A DNA stretch of 64,000 nucleotides, from positions 6,143 through 70,142 of IMG/VR virus record IMGVR_UViG_3300037067_010449. One strand, given 5' to 3'. The position numbers and the translations under genes are program-made. Below the pieces are notes generated by a model. The model was given only the letters and a program-made list of their open reading frames with translations, was not told where the DNA came from and did not search any database. This stretch comes from a virus (taxonomy: Duplodnaviria > Caudoviricetes). Positions 4,669-38,450 of this stretch are shown here, piece by piece; position 1 is the first letter of the stretch; each line of letters begins with the position of its first letter.

Positions 4669-4696
4669 TAAAGTTTTTGTTTATTTTTTACGATAA
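4669..4696 (+). promoter_or_regulatory. sigma28-like promoter, copy 1
   Basis: TAAAGTTT-N12-TACGATAA; one of 7 copies with identical spacing. Confidence 0.75.
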
Positions 4697-4704
4697 TGTA
4701 ATTA

Positions 4705-4862
4705 GTACAGATTGGGAATGCAGTCAATAAGTAAGCGGTTAGTTTTTAATTGCGGTCGGTAATGGTGTTTTCTGACCGTAGATGGTGTAATCTTATGTTT
4801 ATTTGTTGTTAGGTCAAACACACTATACTGACATGTGAACAGTTCAATTCTGTTCCTGTACT
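4705..4862 (+). ncRNA. tRNA-like RNA (158 nt) with long internal insertion
   Basis: Ends GTACAG/CTGTAC pair; T-arm AACAG-TTCAATT-CTGTT abuts the 3' stem; internal hairpin TGCGGTCGG/CTGACCGTA; starts at the predicted TSS of promoter copy 1. Confidence 0.5.
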
Positions 4863-4892
4863 GTTTTATTTTTTAAAAGGAGAAAAGTAAAA

Positions 4893-5165
4893 GTGAACGA
4901 AGACAAAAATAAATGGCTAACGTTTAAGAATTTTATGTACAACGAATTGAAAATAACGAAAGACGATATTCACGAGTGGGTAAAAGAAGCCGTTATCTAG
5001 GAAGCTGAGAAACTTGTTACACAACACAAAATAGACGTGTTAGAGTTGGCTAGTGGTTTAATGAAAAAAGAAATGCTTGGTGACCGTTATGTTGTAAGTG
5101 ATGAAATAAAAAGTAAAGTGGCGCGGTTTATTGCGGATACAGTAATCGTTATGTTAAAAGAGTAA
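4893..5165 (+). pseudogene. 90-codon phage hypothetical ORF with in-frame TAG at 4998-5000
   Basis: RBS AAAGGAG, GTG start; MNEDKNKWLTFKNFMYNELKITKDDIHEWVKEAVI*EAEKLV...MLKE stays in one frame across the stop. Confidence 0.6.
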
Positions 5166-5174
5166 GTTTTAAAT

Positions 5175-5313
5175 CGGTGTTTTGCGCAGTGGAAGCGTGA
5201 TCGCGGAGAACAGGCGAATGATTTTTATTGTTTGCGTGTTTGCTCTGTCAAGTAATACGCGCGATTGTCTGAAACGGAGATAGACAGCAAGGGTTCGATT
5301 CCTTTAGCACCGA
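5175..5313 (+). ncRNA. tRNA-like RNA (139 nt): cloverleaf with a 56-nt insert in place of the anticodon loop
   Basis: Acceptor CGGTGTT/AGCACCG, D-arm GCGC-AGTGGAA-GCGT, stem ATCGC/GCGAT, variable arm TGTCT/AGACA, T-arm AAGGG-TTCGATT-CCTTT. Confidence 0.75.
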
Positions 5314-5332
5314 ATTTTTTAGAGGAGAAAAA

Positions 5333-5683
5333 GTGACAATAGACAATGTACCTGTTGATGATATTTCGTTAAAGTATATAGATGCTAGACCTGAAATTCG
5401 GAGTGCGGTTTCTTTATTATTAGAGGAGGGGGATCAATTTCTTTTATATACTGAAAAGGGGGATTCTCGGGTATTTATACACGATGTGATGGAAGAGGCG
5501 CATACGAACTGTCTGTATAATATTTTGAGTACGTTTGTGCAGCGTTATGGGCACTATCCTACGCTTAAATTTTTCGCTCATTTTTTTAATTCGTCTAACG
5601 CAGATTTGTCTATAGTGGAATCGTGGTTAAATTATTTTAATCAATTGAGAGAAAAGATGATAAAAAGGGAGTCTGGTAAATGA
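5333..5683 (+). CDS. hypothetical protein
   Basis: RBS GAGGAG; stop overlaps the polymerase start. Confidence 0.7.
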   Translation: MTIDNVPVDDISLKYIDARPEIRSAVSLLLEEGDQFLLYTEKGDSRVFIHDVMEEAHTNCLYNILSTFVQRYGHYPTLKFFAHFFNSSNADLSIVESWLNYFNQLREKMIKRESGK

Positions 5684-35585: not shown

Positions 35586-35657
35586 GGTGTCTCTAGTGTA
35601 TCAGTAGCACAATTAACTGTGAATCAATCAGGCAGGGTTCGATTCCCGTAAATGCCT
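35586..35657 (+). tRNA. tRNA-His(GTG)-like, degenerate
   Basis: D-stem GTGT/GCAC, loop CT-GTG-AA, GGG-TTCGATT-CCC; acceptor and T stems poorly paired. Confidence 0.5.
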
Positions 35658-36939
35658 TTTTTATTTTTTTTAAATTGGAAAAAGAAAACGGGGAAAGAGT
35701 GAGTTGATTCGATAACAAAAGTGAAAAGGAGAGTGAAAAGTGGCAGTTATAAATAAAGAAAATAAAATTTACGATGAAGGAACTAAAGCGGCTTACGAAC
35801 GAATTATAAAGTGTGACTCAAAAGGTTGGTTTACGTGTAATGTCCCAGATGTGTGGGAGATGGACGACATTTGTGAGGATATAAATAAAACAGGACTTCG
35901 TGGGCTGTCTGGAAAGAGTTTGTTAGAGATAGAAAATAAATTTCGTGCTGTATTTAAAAATTATAATAGCAAAGAAGAATCGACAAGCTTAGTGATTGTT
36001 TATGCTTTTAGTTATGTTATAAGGGATGAGCAAGGCGGTGCCCACACTCATTGGAGTCATTTTGGTTTTGATATCCAAGCAGCTACATTCAGAAAAACTA
36101 AAATAGTTTTTAAATCCAGCGGGGTTATGAGATACGTATACGATAGAGTTTATAATCGTGTATCTGACCCAAATAATGGAACTCAATTATCCGATAGCAT
36201 AAGTCGGTGTCTTAGTATAGACAAATATTCTAAATGTGAAGAGCGTTACGAGATTCTGTATTCAGATATTATAAGGGATTGTTTAAATTCTTTATCTGAT
36301 AAAGTTGAGACATTAATCCTTAATCTTAAAGATATATTTACAAATGAGACATTAAAAACGATAAGTGTTAAATCCCTTATGCAATTAATTGGGAAACCAG
36401 AGGGGAAATAAAAATTTTTAATGTATTTGTATTAGATTAATAAATTAACTGTTAACCTAATTTTATGAAAGAAGGTAAGGTTATGGAAATTGAGAAAGAA
36501 GAAATGCCCTCTTTAAACTTTAATTTGTCCGATATAGAAAAAGAGATTATTGCCAAAATGTTAGAGATGGGGATTAAAAATTTCAACAATAAAGAATTGA
36601 ATCGTGTTTTCAGTGGGTGTGTTGGCTCCCGTTATTGTGTGGGTATAGCTAAACAATTGATACATAGAGGTTTCGCTTTTTTAACATTAAAAAACAAGAA
36701 ATTGCTGAGAAAAGCACATTAGATTTCTTTGATTCTCTAATAGAGAGCCAAGGAGGTCAAAAATAAGCCTTTACCTAAAGCAGACCTAAAGCAGACCTAT
36801 AAACCCTTTACTTTAGGTATAAAGTCTCTAAAAAGTGCCTTCTTGTGCAGTGTAGAAGGATTTAAAGGTCAGGTATTGAACGGATATTTGACCTTTTTTG
36901 TTTATCTTTAACTTTTTTAATTTATTTTGGCGAATTTAC

Positions 36940-36998
36940 TTGTAATTGTATTAGATAAGTATTATACTTGTATTAGGTTAAGTTAATAAAGCTTAACT
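36940..36998 (+). promoter_or_regulatory. Early-class sigma70 promoter with downstream inverted repeat
   Basis: GAATTTAC-TTGTAA-N17-TATACT, then GGTTAAG/CTTAACT hairpin and GAAAGAAGGAAGG leader. Confidence 0.6.
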
Positions 36999-37020
36999 GG
37001 AAAGAAGGAAGGCAAAGAAA

Positions 37021-37452
37021 ATGGAAAATACAAATATTAGATTTTTTTATAACGGTCTTAAAGTAGGAAAAGGAAAATTAGAAACTTGTCATTACTCTTA
37101 CGCTAACAATAACACAGGTGTTAAAGATGTCACAGTGTACGCAAAGAGTTATAAATCCTTCTCCGACGAAGTGGCAAAAGAATTTGCGATTAAAAATAAC
37201 ACCGATTTAATGACAGATTATTTTGACACAGACGTATTTACAGTTTCCCCCACAAGTAAATATTATGCCCCGGTTTTAAAAACGGTATTGATTGGTAAAG
37301 TAAAAAATGCCGATAAGTATAAGAAAGAACTTGATGGTTTTGCAGTGGCTTTTGAAAGAGAGACATCGACAATAAGTAATTTAAAAGCCACTTATGAACG
37401 TCTTTTAAAAGAGATTAAAGAAATTGAATTGATTATTGAAGGTGGGAAATAA
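37021..37452 (+). CDS. Early hypothetical protein
   Basis: First ORF after the early-class promoter. Confidence 0.65.
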   Translation: MENTNIRFFYNGLKVGKGKLETCHYSYANNNTGVKDVTVYAKSYKSFSDEVAKEFAIKNNTDLMTDYFDTDVFTVSPTSKYYAPVLKTVLIGKVKNADKYKKELDGFAVAFERETSTISNLKATYERLLKEIKEIELIIEGGK

Positions 37453-38364
37453 AATGAGAAGCCTTGACGATATTTTGTCAGGAGTACTTCCTAAAGTACC
37501 AGCGGATTTAAAATCCGGGAAGCGACCGGGCTATACAGTTAAAAGAAAAATGAAAGAGGTCAAAACTTTTGAAGTTAAAGACTTTGACACAATACAAGGA
37601 ATAGATGAATAGTATAACACCGGACAGCGAGCCGGTAAAGGAGAATAAATAATGCAGCTAAAAATTACTTTAGACGAGTTGGAGAAAATTGTTGAAGAAG
37701 TTGAAACTCACTACTATAACGGAAGAGGTTCAAAACATATTTTAGTTAATTTTAAAAGTGGAAAAATACAGCAACCTTCTTTTATAATTGGGAAAGAACC
37801 GTATGAGTTATTGTATGGAGAAAAAGTAGATTGAATAAATTTCCCTTATTAGGTAAGTTAAAAAAGAGAGGTGTGTTGCTTCATTAAACGTTATTACAGC
37901 CTAAGGTGCGACACAAGGGGGGAGACGCATGAAACCGATTAAAAATTCCGTCAAACAGATTATAGGCGAGTTGATAGGTGTTCAAGTCGATCTTATAAAT
38001 GTTGAGTCACAGCAAAAAGAAACCTTATCTATCCTGGAAAAAATCGAAGTTAATTCTCGTAACGTCTTGTGTCGTTGTGATCGATGGAAATTATGAAAAG
38101 AGTATTTCACTTTACAGGGTGTGTCTGTACAAACAAACACACCAGCATTATAGACATACTCAAAAAAGAAAATTACATCTAATTGTATCTAATCCGGCGG
38201 ATGTGACGTGTAGACAGTGCATAGATAGGATGTCCAAGTATGCCAGGGAAGAACACTATAAAACAATTGTACTTCGTGAAAATAAAAGAAAAAATAAAAA
38301 GGAGGTTGTTATTTGAAATAAACATTTCATAGCTCAAAGATAGTACTTTACTATTTACTTAACT

Positions 38365-38408
38365 TGCCTCAGACGGTCGTTGATCGGACTGAGGTATTTT
38401 TGTTTTTT
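38365..38408 (+). terminator. Intrinsic terminator insulating the array
   Basis: GCCTCAG...CTGAGGT plus long T-run. Confidence 0.65.
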
Positions 38409-38422
38409 CTTTCTTTTTTAAC

Positions 38423-38450
38423 TAAAGTTTTGCGTGGGAAATTACGACAA
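38423..38450 (+). promoter_or_regulatory. sigma28-like promoter, copy 7
   Basis: TAAAGTTT-N12-TACGACAA directly before the array. Confidence 0.75.

Follow-up and report, generated by a model that had tools for sequence, protein, structure and literature searches.

A putative sigma-28-type promoter class and a divergent, FliA-like sigma factor in a siphovirus-like phage from landfill and groundwater metagenomes

We analysed a 64,000-nt stretch of phage DNA, hereafter the window, comprising bases 6143-70142 of a 70,142-bp IMG/VR contig (record IMGVR_UViG_3300037067_010449, here G000) that is rated 84% complete. It carries seven copies of a rigid two-box motif, termed class A, which very probably represents a promoter class and, judging from its two boxes, is likely to be of the flagellar sigma-28 type. 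The source is a siphovirus-like phage of 36% G+C whose genes all lie on one strand; it is known from metagenomes of landfill and groundwater. In a segment missing from the IMG/VR record the phage also encodes a divergent sigma factor with FliA-like features, and we lean towards a reading in which this sigma recognizes class A as a middle-promoter class, launching short terminated RNAs together with ordinary mRNAs.

Within the window, TAAAGTTT-N12-TACGAYAA occurs exactly seven times, always on the + strand and with identical spacing. The seven sites named in a first-pass annotation of this DNA (4669, 20154, 27683, 32515, 34972, 35479 and 38423) are thus confirmed, and the motif is absent from all of 100 dinucleotide-preserving shuffles (0 expected against 7 in the window). 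Alignment lengthens the invariant core to TAAAGTTTT-N10-TTACGAYAAT, after which all seven copies read TNTAAWT and then have a purine at motif position 36. Every window copy is intergenic or lies at the stop of an open reading frame (ORF). When up to three mismatches are allowed, 12 matches are found against 4.8 expected; the five extras all have three mismatches and are at chance level. A genome-wide scan, an idea of the same annotation, added three perfect copies outside the window, giving ten in the phage: eight in a 76.8-kb composite and two in a contig that fills an assembly gap. On either strand of the composite and gap contig there are no core copies with one to three mismatches and two to three with four; the distribution is all-or-none. 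All copies are co-oriented with the genes, three of them lie directly 3' of a hairpin and T-tract terminator, and together they are scattered across the replication and accessory two thirds of the genome. Elsewhere in IMG/VR the exact motif appears only as three singletons, each within coding sequence of an unrelated contig, and a relaxed motif gave only singletons among the matches listed. The TNTAAT that follows the motif was considered separately as a sigma-70 -10 box and rejected, since five of the eight composite copies would have G or T at -11.

The resemblance to flagellar promoters is close. The E. coli sigma-28 consensus is TAAAGTTT-n11-GCCGATAA (PMC2859248), and the phage motif agrees with it at 8/8 positions of the -35 box and 6/6 of CGATAA. 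TAAAGTTT(T) is exact in all ten copies, as is CGAYAA, including C-13 and G-12, the two bases that set sigma-28 promoters apart and either of which, when mutated, cripples the promoter (bioRxiv 10.1101/2020.01.02.893370). Two features differ from E. coli FliA promoters: the phage octamers stand one base farther apart (N12 rather than N11), the spacer being one longer than in each E. coli FliA site in the available portion of Table 2 of PMC4183435, and every phage copy has TA where GC precedes CGATAA. In the same portion of that source, E. coli fliC has GA before CGATAA, and the FliA sites found by chromatin immunoprecipitation sequencing include TAAAGGTT...GACGATAA, a high-score peak near fliC by coordinate. 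SigD promoters of C. difficile have 15-18 nt from TAAA to CG, and the fliC promoter, mapped by rapid amplification of cDNA ends, has the same TAAAGTT-N15-CGATAAT register as the phage, with 18 nt from TAAA to CG; the flgM and CD0226 promoters of that species have T-rich spacers like those of the phage (PMC3865298, Table 3). Compared with class 3 flagellar promoters overall (FliA in E. coli; SigD in B. subtilis and C. difficile), the -35 box TAAAGTTT and the -10 core C-13 G-12 A T A A are identical, whereas the phage copies are invariant and their targets would be RNAs together with replication and accessory genes, not flagellar ones. Counting from C-13 (motif position 23), the start (+1) is expected at position 36, which is a purine in nine of the ten copies.

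The exact 29-mer is also carried by 49 metagenome stretches that are not from the phage (JGI contigs). Seven distinct intergenic cases among them have an ORF start within ~100 nt downstream, one being a flagellin ORF 36 nt away (contig L045, Flagellin_N E 5e-39) and another a methyl-accepting chemotaxis protein (MCP) ORF ~54 nt away (contig L050, MCPsignal E 6e-48). By our estimate, two flagellar or chemotaxis ORFs in seven have a probability of ~0.002 at a generous assumed background of 1%, and this placement argues that the 29-mer is used as a flagellar-type promoter in real bacteria. Within the phage no flagellar or chemotaxis gene lies downstream of the motif; such placement was found only in L045 and L050. 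These observations bear on whether class A could be something other than a promoter, namely a bipartite operator, a site of recombination or packaging, or an RNA processing signal on a long + strand transcript. All copies lie on the transcribed strand, which is compatible with a role at the RNA level, and their invariance exceeds that of typical bacterial promoter sets. Even so, we consider a non-promoter role very improbable: the pair of boxes, set at a constant distance around a spacer of variable sequence, agrees with a known promoter class at 14 of 16 positions; flagellin and MCP genes elsewhere have this very sequence in front of them; and the copies sit between terminators and short terminated RNAs.

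A candidate reader came from the part of the genome that the IMG/VR record lacks. Six-frame searches of G000 with Sigma70_r2, r4, r4_2 and TIGR02937 gave no match, and Pfam/PHROG scans of ~80 ORFs in the 70-kb record and a 6.6-kb left extension found no sigma factor, RNA polymerase or activator. The record is incomplete: a segment of ~10.8 kb is missing and is bridged by contigs of the type of L046, an 11-kb contig from the same landfill sample that was recovered by scanning JGI metagenome contigs for the exact 29-mer. At its start L046 overlaps the right-end region of the window at 89-99% identity, and at its end it reaches the tandem-repeat ORF that begins the left extension, itself assembled from contigs with identical RecA that add 6.6 kb (DnaB, primase and a tubulin-like gene) leftward of the record. 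L093, a longer Logan version of L046, shares 99.95% identity with window 56366-60712 (4347 nt), beyond which identity falls to ~90%. In the contigs of X1 and X2, the two runs that contain the phage, the depth of the L046 path equals that of the backbone (16 against 16.1 and 15.9 in X1; ~60 in X2), and the final 75 nt of the path overlap the left-end contig with 0 mismatches. Each of the four assemblies in which the phage is present has both contig types. A minor variant, with a depth of ~4-6, forms the right end of the IMG/VR record. Because the depths are equal, the overlap is free of mismatches and the record ends in a minor variant, the major form of the phage is a circle of ~84.3 kb, and the completeness estimate agrees (70.1 kb / 0.84 = 83.5 kb).

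The minor strain variant spans window ~60713-64000, is ~90% identical to the major one (depth ~4-6 against 16-60) and finishes in a 15-nt tandem repeat encoding pentapeptide ANLEE repeats; in the major variant an ATP-grasp gene, a PHP-domain gene and the sigma gene come next. The tubulin-family gene of the left extension (L038:3180-4277, PF00091) adjoins DnaB and primase.

The bridged segment contains a sigma-70-family ORF of 225 aa (L046:5804-6481). It matches TIGR02937 with 53.9 bits (cut-off 42.9; E 1.6e-14) and Pfam Sigma70_r2 (PF04542) with 31.2 bits (cut-off 24), and falls just under the cut-off of 24.1 for PF04545 with 22.7 bits. The next best models are all of the FliA/WhiG group and all far below their cut-offs (TIGR02479 E 3.8e-11; NF005413 FliA 6.8e-10; WhiG 8.5e-7), and the best PDB sequence match is E. 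coli FliA in the sigma-28 initiation complex (6PMI_F, E 4e-4). In region 2 the alignment pairs TYLYTRIRGYLLDCLR of the phage sigma with TYAVQRIRGAMLDELR of FliA, and in region 4.2 NLKETGKKLNLSESRVCQL with NLKEIGAVLEVGESRVSQL, the two proteins having in common the region 2 motif TY..RIRG..LD.LR and the region 4.2 motif NLKE.G..L..SESRV.QL. We mapped the roles of contact residues from the structure of E. coli sigma-28 (bioRxiv 10.1101/2020.01.02.893370); the alignment did not span the template-strand contacts R94, R95 and R98. Both -35 contacts of FliA, K208 and R220, are conserved within NLKE-G...ESRV-QL, and so are the non-template -10 contacts T69, R74 and R84, of which R74 contacts C-13 (bioRxiv 10.1101/2020.01.02.893370). 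The gene is the last of an operon that begins at sigma-A-type promoters close to the genome's right end and lies downstream of the right-end copy of another promoter-like class (class C, below) and a twister-like element, and a class A copy begins 20 nt past its stop codon.

An AlphaFold model (predicted local distance difference test 78) has sigma-2 helices to about residue 125, a low-confidence linker at 126-157 and sigma-4 at 158-218. The ~30-aa linker takes the place of the sigma-3 domain of FliA/WhiG and the protein has a 55-aa N-terminal helical extension. Top matches in Foldseek are all sigma factors, with E of 4e-3 or weaker and TM scores of ~0.25-0.3; these weak scores leave the fold search unable to assign a subgroup. 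Among 1.84 billion representatives the protein is a near-orphan, with 54 matches at E<1e-3 in all, including one variant of 96% identity, which is also the only match of a word-index search. Four long proteins (513-836 aa) match it in many short stretches (E 3e-14 to 2e-8), and the remaining relatives are at E 4e-7 or weaker. All of the 48 best short relatives belong to the sigma-70 family, and 34 of these 48 match FliA/WhiG at E<=1e-5. The first-pass annotation had conjectured a phage-encoded sigma-28 paralog outside the window, and in part it was right: a FliA-like sigma lies in the assembly gap, but it is no true FliA paralog (43 bits against 189.6, no sigma-3, scarcely any relatives). The three-domain architecture of group 3 sigmas, for which the same annotation had proposed a search, is absent from it.

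Relatives of the phage offer a further comparison. Phages at ~50% portal identity lack the motif at <=2 mismatches, and the relatives G002 and G003 have no repeated dyad. The closest complete relative, G001 (80 kb, 36% G+C, portal 49% identical), is without class A and carries six copies of TAAAGA-N17-GTATTATA, two of which occupy gene positions of class A, directly after the terminase (compare 20154) and after the HINT/minor-capsid gene (compare 27683). G001 also has a sigma-like ORF (TIGR02937 30 bits, below the cut-off) with a region 4.2-like helix-turn-helix which, like the sigma gene of L046, lies near a TIGR-like array and has its own motif directly downstream. Aligned weakly with the phage sigma (E 0.025), the G001 protein retains the arginine of region 4.2 and has S and T for the RIR arginines, the equivalent of R74 being absent. 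This substitution fits the shared TAAAG box and different -10 of G001. Taken together, these features weakly suggest that sigma and promoter co-vary between the two phages.

The findings from bacterial contigs and from G001 bear in opposite directions on the main alternative, in which the host's own SigD/FliA reads class A, alone or alongside the phage sigma. This would tie the gene set to motile host cells and leave the phage sigma to read other sites or supplement the host factor. As a sigma-28/SigD promoter the motif is nearly perfect, its 29-mer precedes flagellin and MCP genes in bacterial contigs, and its spacing equals that of C. difficile fliC (PMC3865298). Reliance on the host factor is nevertheless rather unlikely in our judgement, given a phage sigma that has FliA-like -35 contacts and part of the -10 contacts and adjoins a class A copy, and given a relative in which a different sigma-like gene goes with a different -10 at the same gene positions. 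G001 also bears on the idea that class A copies are sigma-A promoters with a weak -35, in which GAYAAT is the -10 hexamer and TAAAGTTTT an activator or sigma-appropriation box, as in the T4 MotA/AsiA middle promoters. TAAAGT-N17-GAYAAT does have the geometry of a sigma-70 promoter (A at -11, T at -7), and G001 pairs TAAAGA with the sigma-A-like TATTAT. That explanation seems improbable to us: it leaves the invariant TTAC before GAYAAT unexplained, notably the sigma-28-specific C-13/G-12, a sigma gene with matching features exists, and the Pfam/PHROG ORF scans gave no activator candidate.

The most economical reader of class A is, in our view, the phage's own divergent sigma. The position of its gene, last in an operon downstream of the right-end class C element, makes a cascade from sigma-A to the phage sigma to class A plausible, an order that is itself deduced. 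Host sigma-A would transcribe the right-end operon, including the sigma gene, whose product would join the host core RNA polymerase and read class A, probably as a middle class. Region 4.2 would bind TAAAGTTT(T), region 2 would read the -10 box C-13 G-12 A-Y-A-A-T, and transcription would start at the purine 7 nt past that box (motif position 36). About six of the promoters would launch a short RNA that stops at an intrinsic terminator; these RNAs would be the two TIGR-like guide cassettes, the tRNA-like or hairpin RNAs and, upstream of tRNA-Glu, a long leader. Three promoters would directly drive ORFs and one would do so via a hairpin leader, with read-through probably feeding downstream genes. 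We infer all three of the pairing of the sigma with the promoters, the start site and the timing.

Several points weigh against this pairing of phage sigma and class A. Only resemblance links the two. The sigma gene sits on the contig of the major variant and the G000 record itself ends in the minor one. The protein scores 43.2 bits against a TIGR02479 FliA/WhiG cut-off of 189.6, and three of the six non-template-strand -10 contacts of FliA differ in it (R58K, Q63K, Q73T). As modelled, it is a two-domain sigma-2 and sigma-4 protein without sigma-3, because the ~30-aa linker leaves no room for that domain. The comparison with G001 depends on an alignment at E 0.025, and the -10 of G001 resembles that of the phage's sigma-A-like class C, so that other pairings of sigma and promoter are conceivable. 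At L046:6501 the predicted start falls after the Shine-Dalgarno sequence of the next ORF. Finally, among the sequencing runs listed for the phage, none is of RNA.

A bolder and, to us, doubtful extension is that the phage sigma mimics the flagellar sigma of the host: in swimming cells, host SigD/FliA would start class A at a time when no phage sigma has yet been made, that sigma would in turn activate the late flagellar and chemotaxis regulon of the host, and the TIGR-like guide RNAs would be tied to motility. A sigma of two domains may escape the anti-sigma factor FlgM.

What follows the class A copies (Table 1) is mixed. After five of the seven window copies (4669, 20154, 27683, 35479 and 38423) there are 80-260 nt of ORF-free sequence ending in a hairpin and U-tract. 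Shuffle z-scores of the downstream folds are modest (-0.9 to -2.7), so the RNA calls rest mainly on terminators and repeat architecture, and the structure of the 35514..35680 RNA lacks statistical support (z -0.89). Rfam recognized nothing in the RNAs downstream of class A promoters besides tRNA-Gln (20451-20523), which comes next after the 20189..20449 stretch. Downstream of the 4704..4876 RNA come a small ORF, a tRNA-like element and the PolA operon, the leader at 32515 is homologous to that of the class A copy at L038:4669, and the capsid-operon promoter of the sigma-A type lies downstream of the three-unit TIGR-like array. Of the copies outside the window, which include two perfect ones in the gap contig L046 (one at L046:6501), two stand directly before ORFs and one before a long non-coding region containing tRNA-Glu. 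Overall, three of the ten copies lie directly before ORFs, and between a fourth (34972) and its ORF there is a hairpin-U5 leader. The genes that follow the short terminated RNAs are without promoters of their own, which suggests that terminator read-through probably feeds mRNAs too. In its outline, the first-pass view of six structured RNAs and one ORF in the window is roughly correct, the actual set being five non-coding stretches with terminators, one hairpin-U5 leader to an ORF and one plain leader. Its notion of a dedicated small-RNA regulon goes too far, with three of ten copies directly before ORFs, a fourth doing so via a leader and read-through probable; 'mostly small RNAs' is a fair description of what class A precedes.

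Table 1. Class A copies, the elements that follow them and the other promoter classes (window positions unless a contig is named)
Feature	Position	Strand	Details
Class A promoter 1	4669..4704	+	Core 4669-4697; predicted +1 at 4704 (A); exact motif, alignment
~170-nt putative non-coding RNA	4704..4876	+	5' AGUACAG pairs with 3' CUGUACU, then U-tract; fold z -1.45
Class A promoter 2	20154..20189	+	9 nt past terminase stop; predicted +1 at 20189 (G)
~260-nt non-coding stretch	20189..20449	+	Ends in 12-bp hairpin and U-tract (20410-20441); terminator scan, fold
Class A promoter 3	27683..27718	+	Predicted +1 at 27718 (A)
Single TIGR-like dual-repeat unit, 10-bp hairpin and U-tract	27718..27800	+	Fold z -2.19
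Class A promoter 4	32515..32550	+	Directly 3' of terminator hairpin; followed by unstructured 38-nt leader to ORF 32581-32784
Class A promoter 5	34972..35007	+	Exact motif, alignment
Leader with 16-17-bp hairpin and U5, then Shine-Dalgarno of ORF 35077-35481	35007..35076	+	-24.1 kcal/mol, z -2.37
Class A promoter 6	35479..35514	+	First TAA of motif is stop codon of ORF 35077-35481
~170-nt putative non-coding RNA, before ORF 35740	35514..35680	+	Terminal T-loop-like hairpin (GGTTCGATTCC) and U-tract; z -0.89
Class A promoter 7	38423..38458	+	Directly 3' of terminator hairpin
Three-unit TIGR-like array, 12-bp hairpin and U-tract	38458..38610	+	36-nt period; z -2.68
Class A, eighth copy	L038:4669 (left extension)		Perfect motif; precedes 61-aa ORF
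Class B promoter	17492-17521		Before terminase operon
Class B promoter	22777-22805		Before portal operon
Class B promoter	38679-38707		Before scaffold/capsid operon
Class B promoter	~57270-57300		Before lysis-region operon; weaker -35
Class C promoter-like element	~15755-15800		
Class C promoter-like element	~36950-37000		
Class C promoter-like element	~60200-60260		
Class C promoter-like element	~63090-63160		

Phage sigma factors with private promoter sets are textbook knowledge (SPO1, phiEco32, T4). Those with their own middle or late promoters include SPO1 gp28 and gp33/34, phiEco32 gp36 and the sigma of phage 7-11 (PMC13401047, PMC8948821, PMC4331800). The present phage is like the SPO1, phiEco32 and 7-11 systems in combining a small divergent sigma, a rigid repeated non-sigma-A motif and sigma-A-type promoters elsewhere; overlap identity, depth and presence in all four assemblies place the sigma gene and the repeated motif in one phage genome. 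Specificity in those systems is idiosyncratic, whereas here it would copy that of the host flagellar sigma; also unlike them, many targets here appear to be short terminated non-coding RNAs, including TIGR-like cassettes, and the structural and lysis operons keep sigma-A-type promoters. Our literature search found no described phage with a private promoter class that copies the flagellar sigma-28 consensus. What appears to be new is a two-domain phage sigma of putative flagellar-sigma specificity that would drive guide-RNA cassettes. The promoter set now has a candidate reader, a minimal sigma of two domains in which the FliA -35 contacts are preserved, so that the code linking sigma and promoter can be tested in vitro. 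The case also provides a caution, as the apparent absence of a sigma gene in similar phages may reflect an assembly gap or sequence divergence rather than a true lack. Putative promoters of stand-alone TIGR-like cassettes and tRNA-like RNAs, which are needed to understand how such RNAs are expressed, are identified, and the rigid 29-nt promoter and 225-aa sigma could serve as an orthogonal expression pair.

Two other promoter classes were recognized. Class B is of the canonical Gram-positive sigma-A type, TTGACW-N17/18-(TG)TGTTATAMT, and its four members share GTGTTATA(C/A)T, an extended -10; the sigma70-type promoters that the first-pass annotation had placed on the terminase, portal, capsid and lysis operons are real. 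The promoter-like class C reads TTTACTTG-N17-GTATTATA, its -10 being equal to that of the repeated motif of G001, and is followed by TTGTATTA repeats and a GGTTAAC...GTTAACC hairpin that may be an operator. Type-P1 twister (RF03160) matches occur at window 60958-61010 and 63487-63539 (52.6 and 53.8 bits, E 6.6e-9 and 3.1e-9), both below the gathering score of 67.2 and each directly upstream of the ribosome-binding site of an ORF in the right-end, probably early, region.

Scans with Pfam and PHROG outlined the gene content: PolA-UDG, helicase, RecA, SbcCD, methylases and a nucleotide-sugar pathway among the non-structural genes, and terminase, portal, Prp protease, capsid, glycosyltransferases, tape measure and tail among the structural ones. 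A 12-kb megablast query found no match among 50,697 phage records. Searches for a host gave a single irrelevant match for the capsid in GTDB genomes and, for RecA, Atlas neighbours that are viral. Cleavage of L27 by Prp is known from Firmicutes and a small number of other phyla, and the Prp-type cysteine protease of the phage (window 25080-25439; PF04327, 29.2 bits, cut-off 27) hints at a Firmicutes-like host.

TIGR-like arrays are also found away from class A. Two that lie upstream of the window, without a class A promoter, sit in 3' untranslated regions. Arrays of 36-nt dual repeats with the same terminal hairpin are located at G000 1450-1600 and 3250-3360 (locus L008, before the window) and at L046:7399-7445. 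They flank two ORFs outside the window that are candidate cognate proteins of the arrays, L008:1611-2522 (303 aa, no family) and L008:2407-3246 (weak IS110 Transposase_20 match); a PDB sequence search with the former, a candidate Tas ORF, gave no match.

Further sequence features were also seen. A small ORF with a good ribosome-binding site at window 4894-5165, interrupted by an in-frame TAG after 35 codons and open for 53 codons more, lies directly upstream of the tRNA-like element described in the first-pass annotation (5175-5313). The G-over-C skew is 0.23-0.40 over window 1-38200 and the 12.8 kb before the window, and 0.03-0.16 beyond ~38.2 kb, a drop located exactly where the last class A promoter and the capsid promoter of the sigma-A type lie. 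In the composite genome TGTTAGG is found 40 times on the + strand and 13 times on the - strand (~7.6 expected under a first-order model), mainly in one codon phase (xTG TTA GGx), and could represent either a polar motif or a bias in codon pairs. A non-coding stretch of ~300 nt (L046:6860-7160), past the ORF that follows the sigma gene, may be an origin or packaging site; it is dense in short GC-containing inverted and direct repeats (GCTACAGCG, GTACTGC, GCAGC), and a promoter of the sigma-A type and a long hairpin come after it.

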